A program made the position numbers and the translations under genes. The notes beneath the pieces were generated by a model. That model was not told the DNA's origin. It saw only the letters and a program-made list of their open reading frames with translations, and ran no database searches. From Thermodesulfobacteriota bacterium (GTDB taxonomy: Bacteria; Desulfobacterota; Desulfobaccia; Desulfobaccales; 0-14-0-80-60-11), in assembly GCA_040757175.1 (NCBI GenBank), contig JBFLXM010000080.1, positions 213 through 64,212 of the forward strand: a DNA stretch of 64,000 nucleotides, written 5' to 3'. Of this stretch, positions 1,617 through 28,727 are shown piece by piece; within the stretch, counting starts at the first letter, position 1; each line of letters begins with the position of its first letter.

Positions 1617-1619
1617 GGG

Positions 1620-4905: not shown

Positions 4906-6183
4906 TTAATCCATCATGCCGATGCGCCGGTCCACCTGCTCCGTCACTTTGATCCCCTGGGCCTCAAGCTGGCGGCGGGCCAGGGGCGAAACCGCGCCCG
5001 TCACCCAGAGCTCAATCCTGGCCGGGCCGGCCCCCTGGCGGCGGGCCAAGGTCTTCTTCACCACCCCCTCGGCCCGCACGGTCCAGACCCCGTAGTCCAG
5101 GGGGAAGGGAATAAACACCGTGCCATCGGCCGTCCGGGCCAGGATGATCCCCGGCGCGGTGATGTCCCGGATGGGGGAGACCGTTTGCTGATAGGCCGCC
5201 AGGAGTTCGGCCATATTTTGCATAAAGTTGGCCGTGCCCTCGTCATGGGCCTGCAAGGCAAAATTGATAAACGCCTCCCGGCCCCGGGCCCCGGACAACT
5301 TTTCCAAGCTGGCCACGATCACGGTCTTATGGCGCGGGCTGAGCTGGGTGTGATTGAGGAATCTCTCCGTCAGGCTCCGGTCCACCCCCATGGCCTGGAG
5401 CTTGCGTTCATTGAGGTTGCGGAGGGAGCTGGGCGATTCATCCCGGAGCAGCCGGTTGACTTCCCCCGCGGTTTGGGACATCCGGCTGAGACCCACCACG
5501 GTCCCGCCGCCATAGGGGATAGCCGCGGAGAGACCCAGGGACCCCAGGGCCTGGGCCTTGCTCAGGCCGTCCAGTTCATTTTGCAGCACCCGGTTGCTGG
5601 AGTAGACGTCCACCCCCAGGTCATAGGCGATCTTCCGCTTGGCGTCGGAGACGTTCAAAAGCTGTTGGCGCACGCTGTCCCGCCGGGGCTCCCGGGGTTT
5701 CTGCAGGCCCGTGGCGATGTTGTCGAACAGCTTGGCCACCCCCTGGGGAACGCTGGCCAGGGTGGCGCCGGGATCATCAATGAGTTGGGCCCCAAACTCC
5801 AGGGTTTCCTGGGCCTTGCCCCTCACCCCTTCCACGAAGGCCTCGCCCTTACTCGTTTTTTTCAGCGCGGCAATAGCCTGAATTTCCTTGATGAGCTTGC
5901 GCAGGCCGTACTCGCCGGTGACCGTGAAGGTCCCGTAATCCGAATTGACCGTGAAGCGGAGCATGTAGCCGTCCGCGGCCACCCGGTCCTGCACCCGGAA
6001 GTGGGGGCCGGACCTCAGGTTAGAGGGCAACACTTCGGAGGCCCGCTTGGCGCTGGGCGCCTCGTACTTGGCCGCCGCCAGGGCCATCCCGGTGGAGACG
6101 ATTAATGCCAAGAGTATGGAGGTCAATACACCCGGGAAAAGGCCCTTTGCCGTTTTCCCTATCCCTTGAAACCAGTTCTTCAT
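4906..6183 (-). CDS. Hypothetical N-terminally membrane-anchored protein (function unknown)
   Basis: 425-aa ORF; single N-terminal hydrophobic helix 'VLTSILLALIVSTGMALAAA'; 44 nt upstream of the 837-aa gene on the same strand; high third-position GC. Confidence 0.7.
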   Translation of the reverse strand: MKNWFQGIGKTAKGLFPGVLTSILLALIVSTGMALAAAKYEAPSAKRASEVLPSNLRSGPHFRVQDRVAADGYMLRFTVNSDYGTFTVTGEYGLRKLIKEIQAIAALKKTSKGEAFVEGVRGKAQETLEFGAQLIDDPGATLASVPQGVAKLFDNIATGLQKPREPRRDSVRQQLLNVSDAKRKIAYDLGVDVYSSNRVLQNELDGLSKAQALGSLGLSAAIPYGGGTVVGLSRMSQTAGEVNRLLRDESPSSLRNLNERKLQAMGVDRSLTERFLNHTQLSPRHKTVIVASLEKLSGARGREAFINFALQAHDEGTANFMQNMAELLAAYQQTVSPIRDITAPGIILARTADGTVFIPFPLDYGVWTVRAEGVVKKTLARRQGAGPARIELWVTGAVSPLARRQLEAQGIKVTEQVDRRIGMMD

Positions 6184-7761: not shown

Positions 7762-10695
7762 TCAATTATTAATCAAGAGTACATCTAAAGTTCCAACATC
7801 CACAACTCCCCTTACCATCAGGGGCCGCATCATGTCATTCTCTTCGTGCCCCAGGATGTGGCAGTGCCACACGTACTCATGGCCGAAGTCGGTCGTGACG
7901 TTAACCGTAGGAGTTGTGGTAATGGGTTGTCCGGTTTTGGGGTTGATGTTGGTGAAACCCTCTGTGGAACCCAACGGCCGCGAGGGATTAAGAGGCCGAC
8001 GGCTGCGCGGGACTCCAAAGGGAAGGGTAGGCAAATCGGCCTTCTGGGCGATAAAGATGGATTCCAACGGGTTCATCCGGATGGTTTCCTTCCAGCCCCT
8101 CTCATAGGGCTCCGGGGGTTTGATCACCCCGTCCCAGCCAACCCGGTTGATAATCTGGGCATTGTTCAGATGGAGGTGAACGGGATGGGTGTCCACGCCA
8201 TTATGGGTAATCTTCCAAAGCTGGATCTCGCCTCTGAAAAATTTCTCTACGGGCGGATCGATGTAAGTGAAACCGATGCCGTTTGATCTGGCCGGATTCG
8301 CGGTGGGATCGAAGATTTCATAACCCAGGGTGGCATTCATCCGGCCATATGGCTCAAAAAGCTCAACTATGGCCTTCTGCCCCGCTTCCAGAGTTTTCGG
8401 CAAGGTGGTACCAAGCGGGAGGTAGGTTAGGGAAGTGTCATTGATATGAGCATGATAATCGACGGGGGAACTATAAGCCCCCGGATAATAGGTTTGCGGC
8501 ACGATGGGCGGTGGCTGGGACAGCACGTAAGCGTTGGGCAAGGCTGCTTCCAACGCAGCCAGATTATAGGGGGAGGCAGGAGTTCCATTTACCCGGAATT
8601 GCATGATGGTCCGGGTGTTGGGGCCGATCCCCACCTGGGTCTGGGGGGCGCCGCCCGTATCGGTCAGATCCGGGTTGCCCGTGTAGTAGTCGTAGCGGGG
8701 TTGGAAGCCCGGCACGGGCGCGGGGGCGTCGTTATAGAGAATAACGTTGGTGCCCGGCGCCACCCCGGAGAAGTCGACGATGACGTCGGCTCGCTCCGCA
8801 GGTCCCAAAAAGACCGTTACGCCTTTAATGGTGGGGTCTACTCCCTCTAAGTTCTGAACGTTCCCAAAGGTGGCGCTGCCCCGGTCATAGTCATAGTTAA
8901 CCGGCTGGTTTTCCCGCACCGTCACCGCCGGCAGGATGCCGCCTTCAGTGCCGATCTGGACAAAATTGGGTCCCCTGGTGGCCGGGTCCGGCACGCCGCC
9001 ATCCCTGCCGTCCTTCGGCCAAGTGGGAGGATAGCTCCCATTCGGGACCGCCTGAACCATACTGACTTCCGTAGTGGCGCCAATGGTGACGGTGGGAGCG
9101 GAGGTATAACCGCTGCCGGGGTTGGTAATGGTGATAGCGGTAACCTGCCCCCCTGAAATCGTGGCGTAAGCCATGGCCCCGAAACCGCCGCCGCCGGTGA
9201 TGTTGATCCCGGGAGGCCGGACAAAACGGGTGCCGCCGTTGGTAACCGTGATCGCCGAGAGATTTCCAGTCGGATTAACGGTGGCCGTGGCCGTAGCCCC
9301 GGAGCCGCCGCCCGAGGCGTCCAAATACATCTGCAGATTAACAAAGCGGTCGTTACAGGCATTGAGGATCCGGAACCGGTAGGCCTTGGGTTCCACGTTC
9401 AGGTGAGGGTAAACGGTGCCGTTGACCATCATGACGTCCATGAAGGATTCGGGCACGACGCTGGTGGGGTAATTCTGGGGGTTGTTCACGTCCGTCCCCG
9501 GCAGCGGTAAAGCGGCCTTCATCTGCGGAGCCTCTTCCAACGGAGCCAAGATGTTGGGCTGCACCCAGGGGCCAAAGTCCCAGCGGCCGTAGGCGTTCAT
9601 CCCGGAGGGGTCAGTCAGGCTCTGGTTCGGCTCATAGATGTGGGGGAAATAGAGATCGCCATACGTCCCCCAGGCTAAATTCCACTTGGTATCCTGGACG
9701 GTGGCCACGTCAAGGGGTACGAAGCTTTTATCCTGAATGATTAAAGGAATGCCCCATTTGTAAACCCCGCCGCCCTGATCAGGAATGATCTTGGCGAGAC
9801 CCGGATTGACGCCCGTATTATTGGTGCCGTCGATCAAATCATCCTCCACCGGGTCGTGGAGCAGGTAGCCCGCGGCCACGCCGGCATAGACCCCGAGGCG
9901 GGTGATCGCCAAGGCGTGCTCGTGGTAAAACATCAAGCGGCCGCTCTGTTGGTTCGTATAATAATAGGTCGCGCTCCCCGCACCAGGATTCGGCATGTCG
10001 GGGACCTGTTTAAAACTCGCGCCTGTGAGATAGGAGCTTGTTTCTCCCGCGGGGGTAAACCATTGGTGCGGCGTCCCATCACTGATCCAGGGAGTAAACG
10101 CGCCATGGAGATGGTTGGAGTGGCGGTTCTCGGTGTAATAACCTGCCGAGGGGCCAAGGGGCCCCTCCCCGGCCCCCAGGAGGGTGATGTCCACCGGGAG
10201 GGGGAGTTTGCCCGCAGCGCCAACACCCAGTTGGTTGGTGAGCTTGATCCGCACCGGCCGGTCGCGTTCGGCCACGATCACGGGTCCCAGATATTGCGGG
10301 TCCGCTGCCGCACCGGTGCCGAGGTCCACATAACCCCGGAATTGGGAGGCTTTGGGCAGGTCAGTATGCACCTTTTTCGTGTAACCAGTTATGCCGAGTT
10401 GGTAATAATCGCTACCCGGGTACGTGGTTGTATCCTTGACGGCAATGGGGATATATTGCCCCAGGTTGTTGGCGCCGGTTACGCCGCCATCTGCGGATAA
10501 ACCAGGCAGGGAGTCGACAAACTTCCGCAGTGCCGTTCCGGTGTTGCTGCCGAGTGGGCTGATGCCCGAGGGGCTATTGGCATAAAAAGTCGCTCCTGCC
10601 GGGCCGGTATTTGCGAAGGCCGGGTTGCCCCCCCATGGCAGTACAGCTACCATCAATGCCAACCCCATAACCAATAAAAATCTAGGCTTTCTCAT
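7762..10695 (-). CDS. Large multicopper oxidase (977 aa) with an internal tandem-repeat insert
   Basis: Cu-ligand motifs 'HSNHLHG', 'MFYHEHA', 'HPVHLHL', 'HCHILGHEENDMM'. Start moved to ATG 10695 ('MRKPRFLLVMGLALM', signal peptide), which is preceded by GGGAGGGG. The ORF track extends to 10746. Confidence 0.85.
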   Translation of the reverse strand: MRKPRFLLVMGLALMVAVLPWGGNPAFANTGPAGATFYANSPSGISPLGSNTGTALRKFVDSLPGLSADGGVTGANNLGQYIPIAVKDTTTYPGSDYYQLGITGYTKKVHTDLPKASQFRGYVDLGTGAAADPQYLGPVIVAERDRPVRIKLTNQLGVGAAGKLPLPVDITLLGAGEGPLGPSAGYYTENRHSNHLHGAFTPWISDGTPHQWFTPAGETSSYLTGASFKQVPDMPNPGAGSATYYYTNQQSGRLMFYHEHALAITRLGVYAGVAAGYLLHDPVEDDLIDGTNNTGVNPGLAKIIPDQGGGVYKWGIPLIIQDKSFVPLDVATVQDTKWNLAWGTYGDLYFPHIYEPNQSLTDPSGMNAYGRWDFGPWVQPNILAPLEEAPQMKAALPLPGTDVNNPQNYPTSVVPESFMDVMMVNGTVYPHLNVEPKAYRFRILNACNDRFVNLQMYLDASGGGSGATATATVNPTGNLSAITVTNGGTRFVRPPGINITGGGGFGAMAYATISGGQVTAITITNPGSGYTSAPTVTIGATTEVSMVQAVPNGSYPPTWPKDGRDGGVPDPATRGPNFVQIGTEGGILPAVTVRENQPVNYDYDRGSATFGNVQNLEGVDPTIKGVTVFLGPAERADVIVDFSGVAPGTNVILYNDAPAPVPGFQPRYDYYTGNPDLTDTGGAPQTQVGIGPNTRTIMQFRVNGTPASPYNLAALEAALPNAYVLSQPPPIVPQTYYPGAYSSPVDYHAHINDTSLTYLPLGTTLPKTLEAGQKAIVELFEPYGRMNATLGYEIFDPTANPARSNGIGFTYIDPPVEKFFRGEIQLWKITHNGVDTHPVHLHLNNAQIINRVGWDGVIKPPEPYERGWKETIRMNPLESIFIAQKADLPTLPFGVPRSRRPLNPSRPLGSTEGFTNINPKTGQPITTTPTVNVTTDFGHEYVWHCHILGHEENDMMRPLMVRGVVDVGTLDVLLINN

Positions 10696-10968
10696 TTTAT
10701 TCCCCTCCCTGAGGTCCGGGTAAATTATCCGCTTTGCGGCCACCACCGCAGTAAATGCCTTACCGAAACCTAATCTCCGCCTAGCCCATGTCCTTAAACG
10801 CCCAGACTCAAAGACTCAGGCAGCTTGGTCACCAACCAGCAGGAAGACCCGCAAAGGTCTCGATATGCCCTCACGCCCCTACTGATCCCCAGCAAATTTC
10901 TTCAAGTGGTAACTAAGGTAAAAGGTTCTGGGGGCAGAGGCAATTGGCGAAAACCCCTATTTATTACT

Positions 10969-11074: not shown

Positions 11075-11515
11075 TTATCTGAGGTATGCCTCATTTGCTT
11101 CCCACGCCTTCCTCAAATCCGCCATGGCCTTATCCAGATCGGCTTTCTGCTGGCCCCAGGCCTTCTCGGAGGCCTTTTGCAGGGCGGTTAATTGGTTCCC
11201 GGCCGCGGTTTTTTGCATCTGCAGTCTGTTCGCCGACTGGATAAGCAGGCGTTTCATCTGCGGCGACCCGGTGGTGGCTTTAACTCTTAAGTCAGCAATT
11301 TTTTGCTGGATTGCCTCCAATTCCTGGGCCGTATTTTTCTCGTAGGACTGCCTTTCCGCGGGGGTGAAGCTTTTTGCCGTCCCCGCCGGTTCGCCCTTTA
11401 CTTCCGGGCTCTGGGACCGGGTGGCCGGCGGCTTATCTTTTTGCTGCTGCGCACTCCCGTAACCCGGAGCGATTGCCAGCAGCACGGCCATGAACATTAT
11501 TCCAAGCCATTGCAT
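11075..11515 (-). CDS. Periplasmic helical protein with an LTXXQ-type motif (Spy/CpxP/ZraP-like)
   Basis: 146 aa; signal peptide 'MFMAVLLAIAPGYGSA'; 'LTALQ' and 'FTPAERQ' motifs; Lys/Gln/Ala-rich helical sequence. Confidence 0.55.
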   Translation of the reverse strand: MQWLGIMFMAVLLAIAPGYGSAQQQKDKPPATRSQSPEVKGEPAGTAKSFTPAERQSYEKNTAQELEAIQQKIADLRVKATTGSPQMKRLLIQSANRLQMQKTAAGNQLTALQKASEKAWGQQKADLDKAMADLRKAWEANEAYLR

Positions 11516-11719
11516 CCGCGACGTTCTCCTTAATTAGGCCGTGCCAGAAAATCTGACCCCTGCCTTGATTAACTCTCCATCATCCTATTCGACGGATCGC
11601 CTTAAAAAAGTTTACCATTTTTACCCATCTGGGATATCAAAGAAGACTCTATTCTGACCATATAAAAATATGGATATGTACTTAGTAGGTTAAAGCAAAA
11701 AGCCGAAAAAGCTATCGGT

Positions 11720-11755
11720 GAAAATACCTATAATAAAATAGGCGAAAATACCTAT
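11720..11755. promoter_or_regulatory. Direct repeat GAAAATACCTAT x2 (24-nt spacing) in the divergent spacer
   Basis: gaaaatacctat at 11720-11731 and 11744-11755; lies between the minus-strand LTXXQ/MCO genes and the plus-strand NosL operon. Confidence 0.3.
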
Positions 11756-11880
11756 TTGTCTTAACCTGGCCCCACAGGCTCATACCTTTCTCCCTAAAGA
11801 ACCGGTTTTCCCGCCTTGATTTCTTCCATAAAAAACCTATGTTCTTAAACGTGTCGGCAGCAAAATTGGCTGCGGGCAGG

Positions 11881-11986
11881 TTATACCCTGTTCGCTTAGA
11901 AATGAAACAAACTAACACGCTTACATATTGACATCACTCGTAGGGGCGGGGTTGAAACCCGCCCCTACAATGCGAACATGGTATTA
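11881..11986. mobile_element. MITE-like 106-bp element, copy A
   Basis: Terminal inverted repeat ttataccCtgttcgc...gcgaacatggtatta; internal hairpin gtaggggcggggttgaaacccgcccctac; about 92% identical to 33119-33224. Confidence 0.55.
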
Positions 11987-12116
11987 CAGGCTTAATTTAT
12001 CCTGGTAAAATAATTGCCGTTTTCCAGTTCACCGGGGTAAACCAACGGCAAATCTGGCTCAACCTTTAGGGAGAACCGGTGATGGGGAAAAAAATCCACG
12101 ACCTCAGGAGGAAGCA

Positions 12117-12647
12117 ATGAAAAAGAGGATTTTGTGCGGGGTGCTGGCGGCGTTATTCTTATTAACCGGGGTAGTAGTTTATGCCGAAACCATGCCGGAT
12201 ATTCAAGCGCATAAGAACTGTAAATATTGTGGCATGGACCGGGAAAAATTTGGGCACAGCCGGATGCTGACGGAGTATGCCGATGGTTCCAGCTTTGGTT
12301 CATGCAGCATCCACTGCACGGCCATCGATCTGGCCCAAACCCTTGATAAGCAGCCGCAAGCCTTCCTGGTGGGGGATTACAATAAGAAGAATCTGATCGA
12401 TGCCGAAAAAGCCTACTGGGTCATCGGCGGCAACAAACCGGGGGTCATGACCAAAACGGCTAAATGGGCCTTTGCCGACAAGAAGGACGCCGAGGCCTTT
12501 ATTAAGGAAAATGGCGGCAAACTCGCCAATTTTGAAGACGCCATGAAGGCTGCTTACGAGGATATGTATAACGATACCAAGATGATCCGGGAAAAGCGGG
12601 CCAAAATGAAGCAGATGAAGCAGATGCACCATGAGGAAAAGAAGTAG
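12117..12647 (+). CDS. NosL-like copper chaperone family protein with a Met/His/Lys-rich C-terminus
   Basis: 176 aa; signal peptide; 'CKYCGMDREKF...SCSIHC'; tail 'KMKQMKQMHHEEKK'; strong RBS AGGAGGAAG before the ATG. Confidence 0.7.
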   Translation: MKKRILCGVLAALFLLTGVVVYAETMPDIQAHKNCKYCGMDREKFGHSRMLTEYADGSSFGSCSIHCTAIDLAQTLDKQPQAFLVGDYNKKNLIDAEKAYWVIGGNKPGVMTKTAKWAFADKKDAEAFIKENGGKLANFEDAMKAAYEDMYNDTKMIREKRAKMKQMKQMHHEEKK

Positions 12648-12745
12648 ATAGGTGGGAAACGGGCCGGTGCGAAACCGCAATTTCCCTGGAAATTTCCCAC
12701 TGGCCCTATCTCTGTATAAGGCGCGCTCGACGCCAGGGAGTGCTG

Positions 12746-13231
12746 ATGAAATCCTTTAAATTCTTTATTATCTTTAGTTTCCTGGTCTTATGCATAACCG
12801 GTCTCCTCTGGGGCGCAGAGGAGATAAAGCCCGCCAAGATTACCCAGGCGGATAAGTGCCCGGTTTGCGGCATGTTTGTGGCCAAATATCCTGATTTTGT
12901 GGCGCAGATCGTCTTTAAAGATGGCGCCAACGCCTTTTTTGATGGCGTTAAGGACATGATGAAGTATTACTTCAACCTGCCTAAATATAATCCCGGGAAA
13001 ACCCATAATGATATCGCCCTCATCTTGGTGACGGATTATTATAGTATGAAGCTGGTAAACGGCCTCCAGGCCCATTATGTCATCGGCAGCGACATTTACG
13101 GACCCATGGGCAAAGAGCTGATCCCTTTTCAAGATGCAGCCGCGGCCAAGGACTTTAACCTCGATCATAAGGGCAAGGAAATTTTGCAATTTAACAATAT
13201 AACCCCGGACATCATTAAGACCCTGAATTAA
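12746..13231 (+). CDS. NosL family protein
   Basis: 'DKCPVCGMFVAKYPDFVAQIVFKDG...FFDGVKDMMKYY'. ATG 12746 is preferred because AGGGAG lies 5 nt upstream; the ORF track starts at GTG 12740. Confidence 0.8.
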   Translation: MKSFKFFIIFSFLVLCITGLLWGAEEIKPAKITQADKCPVCGMFVAKYPDFVAQIVFKDGANAFFDGVKDMMKYYFNLPKYNPGKTHNDIALILVTDYYSMKLVNGLQAHYVIGSDIYGPMGKELIPFQDAAAAKDFNLDHKGKEILQFNNITPDIIKTLN

Positions 13232-13313
13232 TCAGGCTAACCCTTAGGGGTGGCAGCACTAAACCTGTTTGGCGGCGATCAGCCAGGTATTTGGCAATTA
13301 GCGGGATAAGGCC

Positions 13314-13613
13314 TTGCGAAAATCAGACGGATTCTTGCTCTTTATTGGGGCTTCCCTGGTGCTGCTGGCGTTCATCCTCATACAGGCGGGATACGTAGCC
13401 CAAGGCGACTTTGCCTTGCTCCGGCAAAAGGCCCAGGTGGTCAAGAACCTGGGGCTCACCGACCTCTGCCTGTCCACGGAAGCCCGATATACCCGGCACC
13501 CCTCCCAGGCTGATGGGCACACCGCGCGGCAAAGTCATCCCCTGGCCCTGGACCATTTCCCCAGCGGCTCGATTATCGGTCCTCCGGAAATCCTCCAGAA
13601 GCTCCATGATTAA
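13314..13613 (+). CDS. Small single-pass membrane protein (function unknown)
   Basis: 99-aa ORF with a TTG start; TM 'FLLFIGASLVLLAFILI'; high GC3; stop overlaps the permease ATG by 8 nt (ATGATTAA). Confidence 0.5.
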   Translation: MRKSDGFLLFIGASLVLLAFILIQAGYVAQGDFALLRQKAQVVKNLGLTDLCLSTEARYTRHPSQADGHTARQSHPLALDHFPSGSIIGPPEILQKLHD

Positions 13614-14742
13614 AGCCATCGACAAGCAGCGGTATATTCTGGACTTTACCCTTTCCTCCCTGTGGCGGCGCAAGGGCAAGAATCTGGCCTTGGTGCTGGT
13701 CTATACCCTGGTGGTCTTTATCCTGGGATCGGTCATGTTCTTTACCCAGGCCTTGAAAAACGAAGCGGCCGTGGTCTTAAGGGGGTCCCCGGAAATCATT
13801 GTCCAAAAGATAGTGGCCGGCAGACACGATCTCATCCCCGTGTCCTATGGCTCCCGGATCGGCAAAATCCGGGGGGTCAACGCGGTTAAGGCTCGTTTCT
13901 GGGGGTATTATTATGATCCGGTGGCCAAGGCCAATTATACCTTGATGGTGCCGGAGGATCTGCCTCTGAAAGATCAGGAGATCGTGGTGGGGGCCGGCAT
14001 TTCCCGGGTGCGCCGGGTCTTTCGAGGCAACAGCATCGTCTTCCGGACCTATGACGGCAAGCCCGCCACTTTTTTCCTTAAGGGAATTCTCAGCCCGGAA
14101 TCGGAATTACTGTCCTCTGACTTGATATTGATTTCCGCCCCGGGGTTCGCCTCCCTTTTCGGCATCCCTCCGGACCGGGCCACGGATTTGACCGTGCAAG
14201 TGGCAAACAAGAAAGAAATTCCCACCATTGCCGCCAAAATCGTCGACGCCCTGCCTGATACCCGGGCCATTACCCGGGAGGAAATCTTAAGGACTTATGA
14301 TGCGGTCTTCGATTGGCGGGGGGGCATCATGATCGCCATTCTTGCCGGCGCGGTCCTGGCCTTTCTGATCTTTGCCTGGGATAAAGCCGCGGGGTTGAGC
14401 GCCGAAGAGAAGCGGGAGATCGGCATCCTCAAGGCCATCGGCTGGGAAACCGCTGATGTCCTGCAGATGAAATTCTGGGAAGGCCTGGTGATCTCCCTGT
14501 CATCCTTCTTTCTGGGAATCATCTTGGCGTATTTCCACATCTTTTACGCCTCAGCCACCCTTTTCGAACCGGTGCTCAAAGGCTGGTCCGTTCTCTATCC
14601 GCATTTTAACCTGACCCCCTTTATCAGTGGCTATCAAATCGCCATCCTCTTCTTTATTACGGTTATTCCCTATACCGTGGCCACCATTATCCCCTCTTGG
14701 CGGGCGGCCACCATCGATCCCGATGCGGTTATGAGAACCTGA
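13606..14742 (+). CDS. ABC transporter permease, FtsX/MacB-like
   Basis: Start set at 'MIKAIDKQRYILDFTLSSLWRRKGKNL'; TM1, extracytoplasmic domain, then three C-terminal TMs ('EIGILKAIGW' FtsX signature). Confidence 0.85.
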   Translation: MIKAIDKQRYILDFTLSSLWRRKGKNLALVLVYTLVVFILGSVMFFTQALKNEAAVVLRGSPEIIVQKIVAGRHDLIPVSYGSRIGKIRGVNAVKARFWGYYYDPVAKANYTLMVPEDLPLKDQEIVVGAGISRVRRVFRGNSIVFRTYDGKPATFFLKGILSPESELLSSDLILISAPGFASLFGIPPDRATDLTVQVANKKEIPTIAAKIVDALPDTRAITREEILRTYDAVFDWRGGIMIAILAGAVLAFLIFAWDKAAGLSAEEKREIGILKAIGWETADVLQMKFWEGLVISLSSFFLGIILAYFHIFYASATLFEPVLKGWSVLYPHFNLTPFISGYQIAILFFITVIPYTVATIIPSWRAATIDPDAVMRT

Positions 14743-14749
14743 GGCCCTA

Positions 14750-15433
14750 ATGATCGAACTGCAGCACCTCAGAAAGGTTTTCAATGCGGGCTGGCCCAAT
14801 GAATATGTGGCCATTCACGACTTGAACCTGGAGATCGCCGCGCACCAGGTGACGGTGCTCACCGGCCCCAGCGGCTCGGGCAAGACCACCGTGTTGAGCC
14901 TTCTGGGCTGCATGGCCAGGCCCACGGCCGGCCGCATTATGCTCGGGGAGCGGGAAATTACCAGCCTGCCAGAGCGTTTTCTCACCCAAATCCGGCGCAC
15001 CACCTTTGGCTTCATCTTTCAGCAATTTAATCTGATCAGGGGCATCACCGTCCTGGAGAACGTCATGCTGCCGGCCTATCCCTTGGGTGAGCCGTTGGGG
15101 GGTCTGAAGAAGCGGGCTCTGAACCTGCTGGACCTGTTAAACCTGGCGTCCAAGGCGGCCGCCAAAGTGGAATGGCTTTCCGGGGGCGAAGCCCAGCGCA
15201 CCGCCATCGCCCGGGCCCTGGTGAACAATCCTGGGGTGATTATCGCCGACGAACCCACGGCCCACCTGGATACCGGGTTGTCCCGGGAGTTTCTGGACAT
15301 TATGCGCGATTTTAAAGGCCAGGGGAAAACCATCCTGATTGCCAGCCACGACCCCATGGTCCACGACTCCGAGATCGTGGACCGCGTGGTGCGGATGCGG
15401 GACGGCCGCATCATCGATGCCGGAGTATTCTGA
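14750..15433 (+). CDS. ABC transporter ATP-binding protein (MacB/LolD-like)
   Basis: Walker A 'GPSGSGKTT'; signature 'LSGGEAQR'; Walker B 'VIIADEPT'; H-loop 'ILIASHD'. Confidence 0.9.
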   Translation: MIELQHLRKVFNAGWPNEYVAIHDLNLEIAAHQVTVLTGPSGSGKTTVLSLLGCMARPTAGRIMLGEREITSLPERFLTQIRRTTFGFIFQQFNLIRGITVLENVMLPAYPLGEPLGGLKKRALNLLDLLNLASKAAAKVEWLSGGEAQRTAIARALVNNPGVIIADEPTAHLDTGLSREFLDIMRDFKGQGKTILIASHDPMVHDSEIVDRVVRMRDGRIIDAGVF

Positions 15434-16426
15434 GTGTTTTTTAAACCGGGAATTATTGCCCTCTTTCTCAGTTCCTTCCTGATAAGCGGCATGGTGCTGT
15501 ACGCCTCTTTCTCCGGCGCGCTGATTTTAAGGTATTGGGATATCCACAGCGGCAGCGAAACCCAGTTGCGGCTGGAGAGAAAGACTTACCTCATATCCAC
15601 GATTCTCGGTTATGCCTTTGTTTTCCAACTGTTTTCCTTCTTCTTGTTTATTTACACCGCGGACACTCTCCATCCCTTTTTTACCGGGGCCATGTGTGCG
15701 GTGGGCTCCCTCAACGTCAATCAATGGGGCTTCCCCCTCATAATGCTCAAAATAATTACCTTTCTCCTGGCAGGACTTTGGCTCATCATCAATTTTACGG
15801 ATAACCGGGGTTACGATTATCCCCTCATCAAAGCCAAATACCTTCTCCTTCTGGCCATGGCGCCCTTGATTCTGACCGAGGCCGTAATACAAGCCAAATA
15901 TTTCCTGGGGCTTAACCCGGAGGTCATCACCTCCTGCTGCGGTTCGCTGTTTACCGCGGACACCAAGGGGGTGCCTGCCGAGATTATCTCCTTGCCGCGC
16001 CCGGTCATGGAGATCATGTTTTATGGGGCTATGATCGGGACTCTAACTTTGGGCGGGGTGTTCTATCGCACCGGAACCATGGGTTACGCGTTTGCCGCTG
16101 CAGTTTTATTGACCTTGCTGGTATCCATCGCCTCCTTCATTTCGTTTATTTCCATTTATTTTTATGAACTGCCCACCCATCATTGCCCTTTCTGCATTTT
16201 ACAGAAGGAATACGGCTATATCGGCTATTGCCTCTATCTGCTGCTTTTGGTGGGAGGTTTGGCCGGCATGGGCGCGGGCCTCCTGATGCCCTTCCGGCAG
16301 ATTCCCAGCCTAAAAGAGACGTTGCCGTCCATGCAGAGGCATCTTACCTTGACCTCGATCATCTCCTATCTGTTATTTACCGGCATCGCCACCTACCAGA
16401 TCATCTTTTCCAATCTCAAAATGTAA
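15434..16426 (+). CDS. Polytopic Cys-rich membrane protein (function unknown), last gene of the NosL/ABC operon
   Basis: 330 aa; about 8 hydrophobic helices; 'SCCGSLF' and 'HHCPFCILQ' motifs; GTG start abuts the ATPase stop. Confidence 0.65.
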   Translation: MFFKPGIIALFLSSFLISGMVLYASFSGALILRYWDIHSGSETQLRLERKTYLISTILGYAFVFQLFSFFLFIYTADTLHPFFTGAMCAVGSLNVNQWGFPLIMLKIITFLLAGLWLIINFTDNRGYDYPLIKAKYLLLLAMAPLILTEAVIQAKYFLGLNPEVITSCCGSLFTADTKGVPAEIISLPRPVMEIMFYGAMIGTLTLGGVFYRTGTMGYAFAAAVLLTLLVSIASFISFISIYFYELPTHHCPFCILQKEYGYIGYCLYLLLLVGGLAGMGAGLLMPFRQIPSLKETLPSMQRHLTLTSIISYLLFTGIATYQIIFSNLKM

Positions 16427-19400
16427 TTCCTTTTTCACCTCGAAATTCCATTTCCAGATCTCGTAAATCGCCGGGTAGACCATCAGCTCCAATAGAAAAG
16501 AGGTGAAGATGCCGCCGATCATGGGCGCGGCGATGCGTTTCATGACGTCGGCCCCGGCTCCGGTGGACCACATGATGGGAATGAGCCCGAAGAGCAGGGT
16601 GGCCGCGGTCATGAACTTGGGCCGGATCCGCTTGGCGGCCCCCTCCACGATGGCGCCGTGCAATTGGGGCAGCGTCCGCAGCCGCCCCTCCTTTTTCGCC
16701 TGGTCATAGGCCAGGTCGAGATAAAGGAGCATGAAGATACCCGTTTCCGCATCCACTCCTAGAAGCGCGATCAAACCGACCCAGACCGCGATACTCAGGT
16801 TGTAGCCCAACAGATAGAGGAACCAGACGGCCCCCACCGCGGAAAAGGGCACCGCCAGAATGATGAGCATGGTCTTGGGGATGGACCGGGTATTCATATA
16901 TAGCAGCAGGAAGATGAGAAACAGGGTCAGGGGCACCACCACCAGCAAGCGCTGCTTCACCCGCTGCGCGGCTTCGTACTGGCCGCTCCATGAGATGGCG
17001 TAACCCGGCGGCAGCTTCATCTGCTCCTGGAGCACCCGGGCCGCTTCCTCCACATAGCCGTTGACATCCCGCCCGGCGATATCGATATACACATAGCCCG
17101 TCAGGAGACCGTCTTCATTGCGGATCATGGCCGGCCCGCTCACCACCTTGATGCTGGCCAACTGCCCCAGGGGGATTTGCCGCTTGCCGTCCGCAGCCGG
17201 CACCAGAATCCGTTCCAGGGCGCTGAAATCGGACCGGAAATCCCGCTGGTAGCGCACATTCACCGTGTACCGTTCCCGCCCTTCCACGGTGGTGGTGACG
17301 TTTTCCCCGCCGATGGCATTCTGCACCACGTCCTGGACTTCATCGATGCTCAGGCCATAGCGGGCCAATTGCTGCCGATGCCACTCAAAATCGAGGAAAT
17401 AGCCGGTGCCGGTGCGTTCGGCAAAGACATTCCGGGTCCCCTTGACCCGGGGCAGCAGGGATTCGATGCGGGAGCCGATTTCTTCGATGGTTTGGACATT
17501 GTCCCCGGAGATCTTGAGGCCCACGGGGGTCCGCAAACCGGTGCTCAACATCTCGATGCGGCCCTTGATGGGCATGGTCCAGGCGTTGGCCAGCCCCGGC
17601 AGGGTCAGGGCCTCGTTCATCTGGGCGATGAGCTTTTCCTGGGTCATCCCGGCGCGCCACTGGGGTTTGGGCTTCAGGGTGATCACCGTTTCCAGCATGG
17701 ACACCGGGGCCGGGTCCGTGGAGGTCTCGGCCCGGCCGGCCTTGCCCAGGACCCGGTCCACTTCGGGAAACTGCTTGATAATGCGATCCGTGACCTGGAG
17801 CACTTTTTGGGCTTCGCCGATGGAAATTCCCGGCATGGTGGAGGGCATGTAGAGAATGGACCCCTCCTCCAGGGGCGGCATAAATTCAGACCCCAGGTGC
17901 GTATACGCGGGGATCGTCAGGAGCATCAGGACCACGGCCCCGCCGATCACCCACCACTTCCGCCGCAGCGACCAGGTGACCAACGGTTCATAAAAGCGGA
18001 TCAGACGCCGGCTGATGGGGTGCTTCTCCTCGGCATGGATGGTGCCCACCAACATGGCGTTGGTCAACCGGCATAACCAGGGCGGCCGGAAATTGAAATT
18101 CTCCATGTGGGTGAACAACAGGCGCAGGGCCGGGTCCAGGGTAATGGCCAAGACCGCGGCCACCAGCATGGACAGGTTCTTGGTGTAGGCCAGGGGCTTG
18201 AACATCCGGCCTTCCACGGACTCCAGGCTGAGAACGGGCAGGAAGGCCACCGCGATCACCAGCAAGGCAAAGAAGCTGGGCCCCGCCACCTCCTTGACCG
18301 CGGCCACCACCTCCTCCTGGTAGTCTTGCAGCCGCCCCGTCTGGTGCCACTTCTCCAGCTTCTTGTGGACCTGCTCCACCATGACGATGGCCGCGTCCAC
18401 CAAGGCCCCCACCGCGATGATGATCCCCCCCAGGGACATGATGTTGGCCGTGACCCCCATCATCCGGAAGGGAATGAAAGAAATCAGCACCGCCACCGGG
18501 ATGGTGATCACCGGGATGATGGCGCTGGGGAAGTGCCACAGAAAGATGAGGATCACCAGGGAGACGGTGAGCAGCACTTCCACCAGGGTGGACTGCATGT
18601 TGCCGATGGCCCGCTGGATCAAGTCGGAGCGGTCATAAATGGGGACAATCTTGACGCCTTGGGGCAGCCCGGGTTCAATCTCCTTGATCTTGGCCTTGAC
18701 GCGCTCAATGACGTCCAGGGCATTTTGCCCCTGGCGCATGACCACGATCCCGGACACCACCTCCCCGGTTCCGTCCAGGTCGGTGACCCCCCTGCGGTAA
18801 TCCGGCCCTTTGACGACCTGGCCGATATCCTTGACGCGAATCGGCGTACCGTCCTCACTGGCAGTCAGCACGATATTTTCAAAATCCTGGAGGGACTTGG
18901 CGTAACCCCGGCCCCGCACCATGTACTCGGTGCCGCCGAATTCCAGCAGCCGCCCGCCCACTTCCCGGTTGCCGCCTTGCACCGCCTTGGCCACCTTGCT
19001 GATGGACAGGTTGTAAGTCTGCAGCCGGTTGGGGTCCACATTGACCTGGTATTGCCGCACGAACCCGCCCACCGGCGCCACCTCCGCGACCCCGTGGACT
19101 CCCTTCAGGTAATACCGGAGATACCAATCCTGGTAGGAGCGCAACTCCTCCAGGCTGTGCTTGCCGGTGGCGTCCACCAGGGCGTACTGAAAGACCCAGC
19201 CCAGGCCGGTGGCGTCAGGACCTAATTCCGTCTTGACGCCCGAGGGCAAAAGCGGCAACACCCCGGACAAATATTCCAAGGCCCGGGACCGGGCCCAGTA
19301 AATATCGGTGCCGTCTTCGAAAATTACATAGACATAAGAATAGCCGAAATCCGAAAAGCCGCGCACGGCTTTGACCTGGGGGGCGCCCAGCATGGCGGTG

Positions 19401-19606
19401 ACAATGGGGTAGGTCACCTGGTCTTCGATGATGTCCGGGCTGCGGTCCCACCGGGAGTAGATGATCACCTGGGTGTCGGTAAGGTCCGGCACCGCGTCCA
19501 GGGGTAAATGCCGCAGGGACCACCATCCCAGCAAACAGGCCGCAGCCACGATGATAAAGACGATGACCTTGTTGTTCACCGAAAAATCGATGATCCGGTT
19601 AATCAT
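16373..19606 (-). CDS. cusA: CusA/CzcA-family heavy-metal efflux RND permease
   Basis: Start set at 'MINRIIDFSVNNKVIVF' (ATG 19606, ATGATTAA overlap with the cusB stop). 12-TM RND architecture with CusA-like sequence throughout. The ORF-track Arg-rich N-extension is discounted. Confidence 0.9.
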   Translation of the reverse strand: MINRIIDFSVNNKVIVFIIVAAACLLGWWSLRHLPLDAVPDLTDTQVIIYSRWDRSPDIIEDQVTYPIVTAMLGAPQVKAVRGFSDFGYSYVYVIFEDGTDIYWARSRALEYLSGVLPLLPSGVKTELGPDATGLGWVFQYALVDATGKHSLEELRSYQDWYLRYYLKGVHGVAEVAPVGGFVRQYQVNVDPNRLQTYNLSISKVAKAVQGGNREVGGRLLEFGGTEYMVRGRGYAKSLQDFENIVLTASEDGTPIRVKDIGQVVKGPDYRRGVTDLDGTGEVVSGIVVMRQGQNALDVIERVKAKIKEIEPGLPQGVKIVPIYDRSDLIQRAIGNMQSTLVEVLLTVSLVILIFLWHFPSAIIPVITIPVAVLISFIPFRMMGVTANIMSLGGIIIAVGALVDAAIVMVEQVHKKLEKWHQTGRLQDYQEEVVAAVKEVAGPSFFALLVIAVAFLPVLSLESVEGRMFKPLAYTKNLSMLVAAVLAITLDPALRLLFTHMENFNFRPPWLCRLTNAMLVGTIHAEEKHPISRRLIRFYEPLVTWSLRRKWWVIGGAVVLMLLTIPAYTHLGSEFMPPLEEGSILYMPSTMPGISIGEAQKVLQVTDRIIKQFPEVDRVLGKAGRAETSTDPAPVSMLETVITLKPKPQWRAGMTQEKLIAQMNEALTLPGLANAWTMPIKGRIEMLSTGLRTPVGLKISGDNVQTIEEIGSRIESLLPRVKGTRNVFAERTGTGYFLDFEWHRQQLARYGLSIDEVQDVVQNAIGGENVTTTVEGRERYTVNVRYQRDFRSDFSALERILVPAADGKRQIPLGQLASIKVVSGPAMIRNEDGLLTGYVYIDIAGRDVNGYVEEAARVLQEQMKLPPGYAISWSGQYEAAQRVKQRLLVVVPLTLFLIFLLLYMNTRSIPKTMLIILAVPFSAVGAVWFLYLLGYNLSIAVWVGLIALLGVDAETGIFMLLYLDLAYDQAKKEGRLRTLPQLHGAIVEGAAKRIRPKFMTAATLLFGLIPIMWSTGAGADVMKRIAAPMIGGIFTSFLLELMVYPAIYEIWKWNFEVKKELHFEIGKDDLVGGDAGK

Positions 19607-21836
19607 GCCGGTGACCCCCAGCGCCTTGAGAGGAGGGCGATGGCGGTGGCGCCTGGGGCGGTGACGGCGGCGGCGACGCCTCTGGCGGATGGTACGGCTC
19701 AAATTGCGGCACCTGGGCCTGCGGCGTCGGAGATGGTTGCGCAGGTGGCTGCATATGCGGCATCGGTGGAGCCGCCGGCTTAGCCTGGGATTCCTGGGGC
19801 GGACCTCCCACCAGGGACTGGCCTTTCCCCGGAGGTATCGCCCGGATGGAATCCCGCCTCAACCTCAGCAACAAATCAGGAGTCGTGGGCACCTGGGGAT
19901 ACGTGAAAGTTGATTTGGCCTCTGAACTCCCGGATAAATAATGTTGGGGGTCTTTGTCAAACCTTTGTTTGCAGCCGTCGGTGTCAAAGTAATAAAGCTT
20001 TCCCTGGTATTCGCTGGTTCTGCCCGCCTGTTTGGCCGGTCCCGTGGCCACTGGCAAGCCGCACACCGGGTCCGGCGCGGTCTTGGCCACGGCCGGCGCC
20101 GGGGAACCGCCGCTCCCTTCTTGGGCTGCCGGTTGCAGGTAACGCTCCGGATCTTTATCAAACTCCTTATTGCAGCTATAGCTGCAAAAATAATAAGTTT
20201 TTCCTTGATAGACGCTGGTTAGACCTCCGGCCTGCGCCTGGGTTTCGTCCACTTCGTGGCCGCACACCGGGTCTTTGGCCTTGCCGGCCGGTGCGCCCTG
20301 TTTCTGGACCTCGGGCGCACCGGTGGCAGTCTTCTCGCCCCCCCCTGGTTTGGCGGCGTAGCGCCCGGGGTTTTTGTCAAAATGCTCTTTGCATCCCGGG
20401 GAGCAGAAATAATAGGTCTGGTTATTATAAGTGCTCTGGAAGCCGGCGGCCTTGGCCTTGCTGGCATCCACCTTCAGGCCGCAGACGGGATCCTTGGCGA
20501 CCTCGCCGAACATGCCCGCGGCCGCCAGCTTCATGCGGCTTTCAGAGTCGATGAGGAAATTGCCGGAGACCACGATGCGCTCGCCGGGAGCCAGACCCTC
20601 GATGATTTCCGTCCGTTCTCCCAGACGCCACCCGGTCTTAACCCGGCGCGGTTCGAAAAAACCTTGGTCCCGGTCGACGAATACGGTCTTCTTGAGCCCT
20701 GAATCCATGATGGCGTCCACCGGGACGTTGACCGTGGGAGGCATATTGATGGGAAACTCCACGTCCACAAACATCCCGGGCCTGAGGGCAAATTGCGGAT
20801 TGTCCACCTCCAGGCGCACTTTGACGGTGAGGGTCGCCGGGTCGAATTGGGGCAGAATTTCGCTCACCGTCGCCATATACGTCTCGTCTTGGCCGGCGAG
20901 CGTTACCTTAACCTTTTCTCCCGGCCGGACATACTTCGCTTCATCTTTAAATAAATCCGCCAGGATCCAGACCCGGCTCAAGTCCGCCAGCCGGTATAAT
21001 TCCTCACCACTAACGAATTTTTGGCCCGGGGTGAGGTTCCGAACCAGGACAAAACTGGTAGCCGGGGCATTGATAATAATCTCTTGAGTGATTTCCTTGC
21101 TGCGGATCAGGTCCCTGATCTGCTGCATACTCATGCCCAGGTTCATCAGGTTGTATTCAGCCGCGCGTTTCTGGGCTTCCAGATAGTGCTTCTGGGACGC
21201 GGGCAATTGCTGGCCCTGCGGCAGGTTCTCGATGGCATAGACCGCATAATAGTATGTCTGTAACGCGGTAAATAAATCCTTGCTGTAATACGTAGCCAGA
21301 GGCTCATCCCTCCTGACCAGACTGCCGGTGGAGTTGTTAAATACCTTCATGATAAAACCATCGCTGAAGGCATTCACCCGGTAGATGCGAGTCTCATCAG
21401 CGGCCACCTTGCCCACGGTTCTGAGGGTATAGGTCCAGGGGGACTTGGCCACCGTGGCCACCCGCACCCCGATAATCTGCTGTTTTTCAGGAGTAACCTT
21501 AACGGAACCGGGTGACAAGGCCGAGCCGGCTGCCTGGCCCTCCTCCTCGGCGTAGACCGGCTCCATCTTCATGCCGCAGGGAGCCAACCCCGGCTCAGGA
21601 GAGGTGTGGGCCGGATTCATGGGATCCACATAGTACAAAATGCGTCGGCTCCCGGCAGACGTTTGGGGGTCGGCTTTTCTTTGCCCGTACCAGGACCCCG
21701 CCAGAAATAATACTACCAAGAGCATTAAAAGGACTGGCACATACCAATATTTCTTTAATACTGCGTACAGTTGCCTATCCTCCGTACTAAGGTTCGGTTT
21801 TTCCATGTTCTTCCCCGATTCCGCCTTTAGCGCCAC
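19599..21836 (-). CDS. cusB: CusB-like RND periplasmic adaptor with three C-terminal YHS domains and a Pro-rich tail
   Basis: TM anchor; degenerate metal-binding 'YYVDPMNPAHTS...APCGMKMEP'; MFP core; 3x 'DPVCG...YYF(C/D)S..C...FDK(N/D)P..Y'; the start could be ATG 21806. Confidence 0.85.
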   Translation of the reverse strand: MALKAESGKNMEKPNLSTEDRQLYAVLKKYWYVPVLLMLLVVLFLAGSWYGQRKADPQTSAGSRRILYYVDPMNPAHTSPEPGLAPCGMKMEPVYAEEEGQAAGSALSPGSVKVTPEKQQIIGVRVATVAKSPWTYTLRTVGKVAADETRIYRVNAFSDGFIMKVFNNSTGSLVRRDEPLATYYSKDLFTALQTYYYAVYAIENLPQGQQLPASQKHYLEAQKRAAEYNLMNLGMSMQQIRDLIRSKEITQEIIINAPATSFVLVRNLTPGQKFVSGEELYRLADLSRVWILADLFKDEAKYVRPGEKVKVTLAGQDETYMATVSEILPQFDPATLTVKVRLEVDNPQFALRPGMFVDVEFPINMPPTVNVPVDAIMDSGLKKTVFVDRDQGFFEPRRVKTGWRLGERTEIIEGLAPGERIVVSGNFLIDSESRMKLAAAGMFGEVAKDPVCGLKVDASKAKAAGFQSTYNNQTYYFCSPGCKEHFDKNPGRYAAKPGGGEKTATGAPEVQKQGAPAGKAKDPVCGHEVDETQAQAGGLTSVYQGKTYYFCSYSCNKEFDKDPERYLQPAAQEGSGGSPAPAVAKTAPDPVCGLPVATGPAKQAGRTSEYQGKLYYFDTDGCKQRFDKDPQHYLSGSSEAKSTFTYPQVPTTPDLLLRLRRDSIRAIPPGKGQSLVGGPPQESQAKPAAPPMPHMQPPAQPSPTPQAQVPQFEPYHPPEASPPPSPPQAPPPSPSSQGAGGHRHD

Positions 21837-23562: not shown

Positions 23563-23919
23563 TTAAAAGGTGAATACCTTTGCTTGTTCGGCAAGGTCTA
23601 TTAAGGTTACCCCGGTGCCGATCTTCGCCCCGGGGGGCAGGTCGTCTTCTCCCACCATCCTGGTCTCGGCGCAGGGTTTGCAGACCAGGATGCTAGCGCC
23701 GTGGTCCACCAGGAACCTCCAGTAGGTGATGAGGTCGTCGCCGGTGGGCGCCTTAACCCGCTCCGCCAGGGCCAGGTTGGTGAAATACGCGGCGTCATCC
23801 ACCAGGAAGACCGTCACCTCGTGCCCCTTTTCTCTGGCAATCTTGGCGAACTGAAAACACCTCACCGCCCGGGTGGGATCCTCCGGACCCCGGGTTAATA
23901 CGAATAAGAATTTACTCAT
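23563..23919 (-). CDS. DsrE/DsrF-like family protein
   Basis: 118 aa; 'KFLFVLTRGPED...VTVFLVDDAAY...LVCKPC'. Confidence 0.7.
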   Translation of the reverse strand: MSKFLFVLTRGPEDPTRAVRCFQFAKIAREKGHEVTVFLVDDAAYFTNLALAERVKAPTGDDLITYWRFLVDHGASILVCKPCAETRMVGEDDLPPGAKIGTGVTLIDLAEQAKVFTF

Positions 23920-27326: not shown

Positions 27327-27360
27327 AGATTTAACCGGTCAGGCTAAGTACATAACTTTG

Positions 27361-27595: not shown

Positions 27596-27611
27596 AACCA
27601 AATAACGCCCT

Positions 27612-28625: not shown

Positions 28626-28649
28626 AAGGGCGGAACCAACCCTAATGTA

Positions 28650-28726: not shown

Positions 28727-28727
28727 G

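Follow-up and report, generated by a model that had tools for sequence, protein, structure and literature searches.

The genome of a Thermodesulfobacteriota bacterium (order Desulfobaccales; GenBank assembly GCA_040757175.1) contains a cassette of six genes that probably encodes an undescribed ATP-powered system handling copper(I) outside the cytoplasm. The cassette was analysed within a 64,000-nucleotide stretch of contig JBFLXM010000080.1 (forward strand, positions 213–64,212; hereafter, the window), in which it occupies positions 12117–16426 of the forward strand and comprises two NosL-family genes followed by genes for a small single-pass membrane protein, an FtsX/MacB/LolC-type permease, an ATP-binding cassette (ABC) ATPase and a protein with eight transmembrane (TM) helices, hereafter the 8-TM protein. 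We put the probability at roughly one half that the encoded proteins constitute a periplasm-facing, ATP-driven Cu(I) relay, rather than a maturation system for N2O reductase or a conventional transmembrane pump. The gene set is undescribed in the literature searchable with combinations of NosL with FtsX, ABC transporter, the carrier groups and CusA, the nearest remark concerning a Parageobacillus nosLDFY locus devoid of nosZ (PMC13068155).

The initial annotation of this DNA had proposed a six-gene set, and all six open reading frames (ORFs) are indeed present, co-oriented and closely spaced on the forward strand. The first two genes encode NosL1 (12117–12647; 176 aa; PF05573, E 6.8e-17) and NosL2 (12740–13231; 163 aa; PF05573, E 1.2e-32). 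They are followed by the small single-pass protein (13314–13613; 99 aa), which matches no Pfam or NCBIfam family, the permease (13606–14742; 378 aa; PF02687), the ATPase of the LolD/FtsE/MacB nucleotide-binding domain (NBD) type (14750–15433; 227 aa; PF00005, E 8e-29) and the unannotated 8-TM protein (15434–16426; 330 aa), likewise without a match in Pfam or NCBIfam. The small-protein and permease genes overlap by 8 nt, 7 nt separate the permease from the ATPase, and the 8-TM gene begins immediately past the ATPase stop codon, with a gap of 0 nt. The permease ORF opens at a TTG codon at 13411; however, its close homologues are all 378 aa long and start at the equivalent of the ATG at 13606, and the latter is therefore taken as the true start.

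Conservation of the cassette was assessed in two samples. The first consisted of the 80 best loci for the 8-TM query among genomes, one genome per species, with flanks of 10 kb on either side, in which relatives of each window protein were placed by tblastn; 55 of these loci have sufficient upstream sequence, 46 have room on both sides and 41 have full flanks. The second consisted of 80 metagenome loci from an independent scan seeded with divergent members of the 8-TM family, and divergent members 30%–37% identical to the window protein were, in addition, looked up individually. Because the loci retrieved were those matching the query best, the frequencies of neighbouring genes describe these two samples and not the whole family. 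Directly upstream of the 8-TM gene and on the same strand, the ATPase gene was found in 53 of the 55 genome loci, and the permease gene was found upstream in 52. The small-protein gene lies just upstream of that for the permease, also in 52 of 55, and is a genuine, conserved gene. At least one NosL-domain gene is located within 6 kb in 43 of 46 loci, and two or more are present in 28 of 46. The same pattern recurs in the metagenome sample and in the divergent lineages at 30%–37% identity. Taken together, these observations indicate that the six genes form one operon-like cassette, a conserved unit rather than a chance juxtaposition.

Relatives of the 8-TM protein were detected in the genomes of at least 589 species (one genome per species), and their hosts include Desulfobacterota, Nitrospirota (Thermodesulfovibrionales), Geobacterales, Syntrophales, Methylococcales and one Marinimicrobia metagenome-assembled genome (MAG). 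The carriers are mostly anaerobic bacteria, with Pelotalea chapellei DSM 13688 (locus L018) and Geobacter sp. OR-1 (L073) as cultured representatives. A set of 5.8 billion proteins contains more than 4886 homologues of the 8-TM protein, and an exhaustive search gave 960 clusters at 50% identity. A tblastn search of a plasmid collection with the same query returned no match and so gave no indication that known plasmids carry the cassette.

Both NosL proteins score well above the PF05573 gathering cutoff of 24 bits (62.5 bits for NosL1 and 113.4 bits for NosL2), and their matches in the PDB are the NosL structures 7osf, 7og7 and 2hpu. Mutagenesis of Shewanella denitrificans NosL has identified Cys62, Met64 and Met145 as essential Cu(I) ligands (PMC8457098). 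Alignment to the solved NosL structures indicates that this triad is kept in both window proteins, as C38-G-M40 plus M111 in NosL1, which was aligned to S. denitrificans NosL (7og7) with M111 falling on the Met145 loop, and as C43-G-M45 plus M123 in NosL2, which aligns to Pseudomonas stutzeri NosL (7osf) over 131 residues (E 7e-08). The Cu(I)-binding motif of NosL2 reads C40-x2-C43-G-M45, and NosL1 displays a four-cysteine TRASH-like site (C35-x2-C38-G-M40 … C63-x3-C67). At the Zn(II) site of NosL (Cys59/Cys88/Asp92), described as variable (PMC8457098), NosL1 aligns cysteines throughout (C35, C63 and C67); NosL2 retains C40 and has Phe/Asp aligned where Cys88 lies. Neither window NosL contains a lipobox ([LVI][ASTVI][GAS]C) at a suitable position, their signals being of the signal peptidase I (SPase-I) type, and among the 81 cassette NosLs collected over the 80 genome loci, only 2 show a lipobox-like motif, the remainder carrying SPase-I-type signals. 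Unlike canonical NosL, the window proteins are thus predicted to be secreted and soluble rather than lipoproteins. NosL2 is the copy most constantly found in related loci. In two loci (L081:6783-7910 and L084:6685-7845), a single protein of ~380 aa with two NosL domains replaces the two NosL genes, and the two window NosLs therefore appear to act together.

The permease was predicted in the initial annotation to be of the MacB/FtsX type rather than NosY-like, which is borne out by both its domain composition and its fold. The protein carries the FtsX C-terminal domain (PF02687), homologues also match PF12704 (MacB_PCD), and the AlphaFold2 model (pLDDT 78) consists of TM1, a mixed alpha/beta domain and then three TM helices, with a periplasmic domain of ~175 aa (residues 60–235) between TM1 and TM2. 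A structure prediction for this periplasmic domain had been called for at the outset; with the model of the permease as query, Foldseek gave matches to LolE, LolC, MacB, HrtB, YbbP, BceB and FtsX at probability 1.00 and E-values down to 7e-14. Judging from the model, the permease belongs to the type VII ABC (MacB/LolCE/FtsX) superfamily. This class works by mechanotransmission, as in LolCDE, which delivers to LolA, and in MacB, FtsEX and HrtBA, and its substrate is not carried across the membrane. Given that the cassette contains only one permease gene, the protein is presumably a homodimer. It is not LolCE itself, because it scores 34 bits against the cutoff of 362 for the lolCE equivalog TIGR02212. 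The best NCBIfam matches of the ATPase are FtsE, DevA, LolD (TIGR02211; 169 bits, cutoff 308) and MacB, every one under its equivalog cutoff. The NBD is encoded separately from the permease and no membrane-fusion protein is encoded within the cassette, the only one nearby being CusB, which is paired with CusA.

The 8-TM protein was modelled with high confidence (pLDDT 94, pTM 0.92), and the model indeed has eight TM helices. Both motifs that the initial annotation had singled out, SCCG and HHCPFC, are real and belong to a cluster of conserved residues located in the loops after TM2 (M87-C88), TM4 (C168-C169) and TM6 (H249-H250-C251-P-F-C/D254). In a set of 42 diverse homologues with 30%–50% identity, C88, C168, C169 and C251 are invariant (42/42), and M87, H249 and H250 are found in 41, 40 and 35 sequences, respectively. 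Position 254 is occupied by Cys in 34 and by Asp in 7 of the 42, an alternation that suits a metal ligand and not an obligatory redox CxxC. The cluster-bearing loops contain on average only 0.7, 1.9 and 1.0 Lys and Arg residues, compared with 2.5–3.2 in the alternate loops; being poor in these residues, they are predicted by the positive-inside rule to face the periplasm, together with the Met/Cys/His cluster. We propose that the 8-TM protein serves as a membrane Cu(I) station. Foldseek comparison of its model with the PDB gave chance-level matches only (G-protein-coupled receptors and Cox3; best E 0.087), a profile search of PDB sequences gave none, and Pfam at E ≤ 1 recognized none of the 42 family members. 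The longer family members P0121 and P0124 carry low-complexity or frameshift-like extensions only and no domain fusion.

The small protein has an N-terminal hydrophobic helix, constituting its single TM segment, followed by a strongly conserved tail with the family motif LTDLCLFTEARYTRHPSxADLxTPFQDHPxSLEHFPSGS. Its relatives number 5784 database proteins at E ≤ 0.001, all of them unnamed or labelled ‘hypothetical’. An adaptor of the ABC/8-TM complex is the role that we propose for it.

Reviews treat NosL as an N2O-reductase factor (PMC7558416; PMC6769254). The cassette, by contrast, is independent of N2O reductase and almost never lies beside its genes. When all ORFs of at least 200 aa on the likely coding strand of the entire 64-kb window were scanned against Pfam, none encoded NosZ, NosD (PF05048), NosY (ABC2_membrane) or NosR, in agreement with the absence of nosZ, nosD and nosR noted in the initial annotation. 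Using the NosD and NosY of locus L082 as the sole queries, tblastn detected no homologues in the window or within 10 kb in the 80 genome loci (E < 1e-6), and none in the metagenome loci of at least 6 kb (E < 1e-5). ORFs with a CuA motif were likewise found neither in the window nor in the 80 genome loci.

The neighbourhoods point to copper. Among the 41 genome loci with full flanks, the commonest gene within 10 kb is cusA (20/41), followed by cusB (14), genes for a TlpA-like redoxin (9), a YtkA-like protein (8), a multicopper oxidase (MCO; 6) and Sco1 (5), and those for an FtrD-like protein and a NosL fused to an outer-membrane barrel (PF13557; 3 each); nosD and nosY were found in none (0/41 each). 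In the metagenome loci of at least 6 kb, cusA was counted in 9, Sco1 in 8, TlpA in 7, YtkA in 3 and MCO in 2. Across all 80 genome loci, cusA precedes the cassette with the same orientation in 14, mostly with cusB ahead of it, and is convergent and downstream in 7, the window included; a TlpA-like redoxin gene is immediately beside the cassette in 18 as well as in several metagenome loci. All recurrent partners are copper proteins or factors that handle copper.

Several variants link the cassette to particular copper proteins. The only locus in which it is joined to a nos-type cluster, L082:1-12075 (a contig from Logan SRR8439172), comes from a divergent lineage and carries, in order, nosD, nosF, nosL, nosY, a TlpA-like redoxin, a NosL–cytochrome c fusion, NosL, a NosL–outer-membrane-barrel fusion, then the genes for the small protein, the FtsX permease, the ABC ATPase and the 8-TM protein, and lastly one of the FGE-sulfatase family; upstream of nosD, the contig extends for 148 nt. 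In L086 (7244-19449), L087 and L091, four additional genes interrupt the cassette. They encode an unannotated protein of ~490 aa, a cupredoxin resembling azurin, a protein of 643 aa in which a CuA (ba3 CoxB-like) domain is fused to a NapH-like Fer4_5 polyferredoxin, and a CuA–cytochrome c protein; an FtrD-like gene comes next and, in L086 and L087, is followed by one for a TonB-dependent receptor, whereas the contig of L091 stops at this point. This variant may represent an undescribed copper-dependent respiratory module. Fusions of ~470 aa, in which an N-terminal NosL is joined to an outer-membrane beta-barrel of the Phenol_MetA_deg family (PF13557), were found in L051 (2458-3879) as well as in L041, L048, L055 (Methylococcales), L006, L042 and L078; in methanotroph MAGs, the fusion gene lies directly downstream of the cassette, after that for a TlpA-like redoxin. 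These fusion proteins may act as outer-membrane copper gates.

In the window itself, the cassette is part of a copper/silver stress island, and the neighbours named in the initial annotation, a large MCO and cusBA, are present. The divergent MCO (7762–10746, reverse strand; 994 aa; PF07731, with weak PhsA/CueO matches in NCBIfam) has a signal peptide without a twin-arginine motif and is a candidate copper client or Cu(I) oxidase of the island. It is unusually long and contains a Gly/Thr-rich repeated insert (…TVTNGGTRFVRPPGINITGGGGFG…ITITNPGSGYTSAPTV…); its relatives in L027 and L035 have C-terminal FG-GAP repeats. Convergent with the cassette is the gene for a CusA-type heavy-metal resistance-nodulation-division (RND) pump (16373–19702, reverse strand; PF00873), which scores 1091 bits against the TIGR00914 cutoff of 701; the ORF starts with an Arg-rich 32-residue extension that is probably untranslated, the likely start being a Met codon at ~19606. 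The CusB-type membrane-fusion protein (19599–21836, reverse strand; PF16576 and three copies of PF04945) has CusB as its best NCBIfam match, below the cutoff, and ends in three tandem YHS (TRASH-like) metal-binding domains. No gene for CusF or for CusC or another outer-membrane efflux protein accompanies the window cusBA, the nearest gene of the latter kind (28728–30089) being part of a second RND operon. At the edge of the island is a CopS/CusS–CopR/CusR-type two-component system (183–2291, reverse strand), of which the sensor kinase passes the TIGR01386 cutoff (302 versus 292.6 bits) and the regulator has TIGR01387 as its best match (265 bits; cutoff 279).

The relay appears to us the most economical model for these proteins, because all metal-binding parts are either secreted (NosL) or predicted to face the periplasm (the cluster of the 8-TM protein), the sole cytoplasmic part is the ATPase and type VII ABC systems follow the same logic. 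According to this model, the two secreted, non-lipidated NosLs would bind Cu(I) through Cys-x-x-Cys-Gly-Met and the distal Met, and the 8-TM protein, its Met/Cys/His cluster exposed to the periplasm, would serve as a Cu(I) station in the inner membrane. The permease homodimer and the ATPase would turn ATP hydrolysis into periplasmic movement without carrying the metal across the membrane, and this mechanotransmission would force the hand-over of Cu(I) between the membrane station and NosL, with the ~100-aa single-pass protein serving as the adaptor of the complex. We infer that the parts of the cassette associate physically and that transfer follows this direction. In the present genome, the output would most likely be Cu(I) passed to CusB/CusA for expulsion and to the MCO; this destination is favoured because the surrounding island encodes an MCO, CusBA and a CopRS-like sensor but no CusF.

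Several observations weigh against the relay. In roughly half of the loci, cus genes are absent from the vicinity, and Sco1, TlpA, the CuA proteins and the nosDFY genes of L082 are cuproenzyme-assembly factors, which point to supply over disposal. The fusion of NosL to an outer-membrane protein in copper-hungry methanotrophs (L041, L048, L051 and L055) could equally signify uptake. The positive-inside rule is the sole source of the topology assigned to the cysteine cluster of the 8-TM protein. Copper as the substrate is suggested only by NosL homology and gene neighbourhood, and sites rich in cysteine can bind Ag, Hg, Cd and Zn as well. Finally, in 60 upstream regions searched for gapped palindromes and enriched 8-mers, nothing recurrent was found.

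The upstream region was also inspected for promoters. A TGG-N8-TTGC element at ~12022, upstream of nosL1, looked like a sigma-54 promoter and was dropped, because the strict sigma-54 consensus is found in none of 67 regions upstream of the cassette (the window and 66 loci). A promoter and terminator scan of 11400–16700 gave counts that did not exceed the shuffle expectation. The 600-bp intergenic region upstream of nosL1 includes a hairpin at 11940–11968 with a perfect 11-bp stem, GTAGGGGCGGG-gttgaaa-CCCGCCCCTAC, which is followed by a T-run on neither strand.

A broader reading of the cassette is possible, albeit tentative: it could be a general module for moving Cu(I) outside the cytoplasm, mainly in anaerobes, in which a type VII ABC transporter loads or unloads soluble NosLs at the 8-TM station with the help of the small adaptor, serving different clients in different genomes. 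Such a module would stand in for CusF in efflux and for NosD/NosY in enzyme assembly; its clients would be CusBA, MCO, CuA proteins, NosZ and perhaps pMMO, and it would bear on the question of the source of copper for NosL.

Of the competing explanations, that which survives best, despite being rather doubtful, is that the cassette is not concerned with efflux and supplies Cu(I) to secreted copper enzymes, namely, the MCO in the window and elsewhere CuA proteins or, via NosD, NosZ. The only established role of NosL is indeed the delivery of copper for enzyme assembly (PMC8457098; PMC7558416). The cassette of L082 comes immediately after nosD-nosF-nosL-nosY and a TlpA-like redoxin gene, and those of L086, L087 and L091 are interspersed with genes for copper proteins, so that a cuproenzyme-supply role can be expected to exist somewhere in the family and may also apply to the window. 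Sco1 and TlpA-like genes recur as neighbours, and the window MCO, having no twin-arginine motif, would need its copper in the periplasm. Against this explanation, in many loci the 10 kb on either side encode no copper enzyme, adjacency to nosD/nosY is confined to one lineage, cusBA is the dominant neighbour, with cusA upstream on the same strand in the 14 loci mentioned above, and MCO adjacency is a minority trait in both samples. The initial annotation had suggested a distinct, uncharacterized copper-trafficking ABC system, possibly loading the adjacent oxidase, and had proposed comparing the co-occurrence of the cassette with MCO genes and with nosZ. Within 10 kb, MCO was found in a minority of loci (6/41) and nosD/nosY in none. 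A distinct NosL cassette, in which an FtsX/MacB permease replaces NosDFY and the copper context is strong, is supported, but loading of the oxidase is not supported as its general function, given that cusA is found in 20 of the same 41 loci.

That the same machinery handles another thiophilic metal, such as Ag(I), Hg(II), Cd(II) or Zn(II), instead of copper seems unlikely. Desulfobacterota, Geobacterales and Nitrospirota, to which the hosts largely belong, include mercury methylators. All-sulfur and His ligands are not specific for copper, NosL1 has a four-cysteine site, and TIGR00914 and TIGR01386 span Cu, Ag, Zn and Cd systems alike; moreover, the NosL fold is common to MerB and TRASH domains (PMC10114901), and S. 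denitrificans NosL binds zinc as well (PMC8457098). Nevertheless, the Cu(I) triad is intact in both window NosLs, the recurrent neighbours (MCO, Sco1, YtkA, CuA proteins and nosDFY) are copper-specific, and mer genes were seen in no flank. The TM4 motif of CusA, AVG..VDAAIVMVE, is, in addition, what we take to be the Cu/Ag type of the Nies classification.

Even less probable is a thiol–disulfide module, in which the 8-TM protein would be a DsbD/CcdA-like reductase keeping the cysteines of NosL and TlpA reduced and the ABC transporter would export a sulfur species or a thiol. Such a reductase would fit the four to five conserved cysteines, among them those of CPFC (a CxxC motif), DsbD-beta likewise has eight TM helices, and a TlpA-like redoxin gene adjoins the cassette directly in the 18 genome loci mentioned above. 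However, the 8-TM protein shows no similarity in sequence or fold to CcdA, DsbD, DsbB or VKOR, and an obligatory dithiol is incompatible with the finding that 7 of 42 homologues have Asp in place of the second Cys of CPFC. Because the cysteine-bearing loops are all on one face, an electron path across the membrane is not evident, and type VII ABC proteins are not known to export small thiols. Least credible is Lol-like lipoprotein release, or MacB-like export of a substrate other than a metal, the NosL genes being no more than neighbours; this reading is suggested by the automatic Joint Genome Institute name of the permease homologues (‘ABC-type lipoprotein release transport system permease’) and by LolE and LolC as the closest folds, but sits poorly with the low lolCE equivalog score, the absence of a MacA-type adaptor and the persistence of NosL genes with the cassette across phyla, down to 30% identity, and is largely refuted by the lipobox test, the SPase-I signals of all but 2 of 81 cassette NosLs leaving no lipoprotein cargo.

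Other genes of the window call for brief mention. Between the two-component system and a DUF3786/Fe–S protein, there are two ORFs on the reverse strand, of 837 aa (2348–4861) and 425 aa (4906–6183), which have no Pfam or NCBIfam match and no tblastn relatives in the 80 genome loci; the coding strand of the former is uncertain, because a 787-aa ORF on the opposite strand overlaps it. A second and complete RND operon, encoding a pump, a membrane-fusion protein and an outer-membrane factor, extends over 24096–30089 (reverse strand), 2.3 kb past cusB, and is preceded by a DsrE-family gene (23563–23919) and genes for two TPR proteins. Two patches of low G+C content (35871–37535 and 41115–42068; ~0.41 versus ~0.6 elsewhere) encode an AAA_15/AAA_21 (OLD/AbiEii-like) ATPase and an N6/N4 DNA methylase; together with a second methylase gene (48650–49777), these are probably horizontally acquired defence or restriction genes.

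The cassette reveals a large NosL lineage acting alongside a different ABC class, in the absence of NosZ, NosD and NosY, and two of its proteins represent unannotated families with thousands of members, one of which, the 8-TM family, has no structural relative in the PDB. If correct, the relay would add an energized step to periplasmic copper trafficking and would explain both the feeding of CusBA in organisms without CusF and the supply of Sec-exported copper enzymes in anaerobes, where copper is present as Cu(I) and sulfide competes for it. Functional names could then be given to genes now labelled ‘lipoprotein release permease’ or ‘hypothetical’. The model is amenable to testing, as cultured carriers exist among the Geobacterales.

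Compared with known systems, the cassette is closest in logic to NosDFYL. NosDFY spends ATP to take copper from NosL, and both systems encode a NosL-family chaperone with Cys-x-x-Cys-Gly-Met and Met together with an ABC ATPase/permease pair that works, or in the case of the cassette would work, at the periplasmic face without driving the metal through the membrane. However, the cassette lacks NosD, NosZ and NosY, an ABC-2 permease with six TM helices, and has instead an FtsX/MacB-type permease with four TM helices and a periplasmic domain; its NosLs are two soluble paralogues and not lipoproteins, its 8-TM and ~100-aa proteins have no counterpart in NosDFYL, and its usual neighbour is cusBA.

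With LolCDE, MacAB-TolC, FtsEX and HrtBA, the cassette shares the permease fold (Foldseek E 7e-14 to 1e-9), the NBD type and, presumably, the use of cytoplasmic ATP hydrolysis to drive work in the periplasm or the outer leaflet; LolCDE, which passes its cargo to a soluble periplasmic chaperone, offers a close analogy to the hand-over to NosL. Nevertheless, the cassette proteins fall far below the LolCE, MacB and FtsE equivalog cutoffs, have neither MacA nor a lipoprotein cargo and are always accompanied by metallochaperones, a small protein with one TM helix and an 8-TM protein that is unrelated. Unlike in MacAB-TolC, the NBD is unfused and there is no dedicated MacA-type membrane-fusion protein. 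Similarity to CusCFBA lies in the adjacent CusB and CusA, encoded on the cassette strand in many genomes, and in the small secreted Cu(I) chaperone encoded beside the pump; however, the window cusBA has neither CusF nor CusC next to it, the chaperones have the NosL fold and not the OB-fold of CusF, and an ATP-driven module is added.

The Ftr1–P19 iron/copper uptake loci of Campylobacter and Brucella include FtsX-like ABC permeases, an FtrD-like protein, periplasmic thioredoxins and a periplasmic metal-binding protein. The cassette resembles them in the co-location of an FtsX-type ABC transporter, thioredoxin-like and FtrD-like (PF10080) proteins and a periplasmic metal-binding protein, FtrD-like genes flanking it in 5 of the 80 genome loci and in L086, L087 and L091. 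It differs in having no Ftr1 permease and no P19, in the place of which NosL is found, and in its unrelated 8-TM protein. Collectively, these comparisons depict a putative relay that combines metallochaperones with an ABC transporter of a different class and with two unannotated families; it resembles NosDFYL and LolCDE–LolA and is a member of neither.

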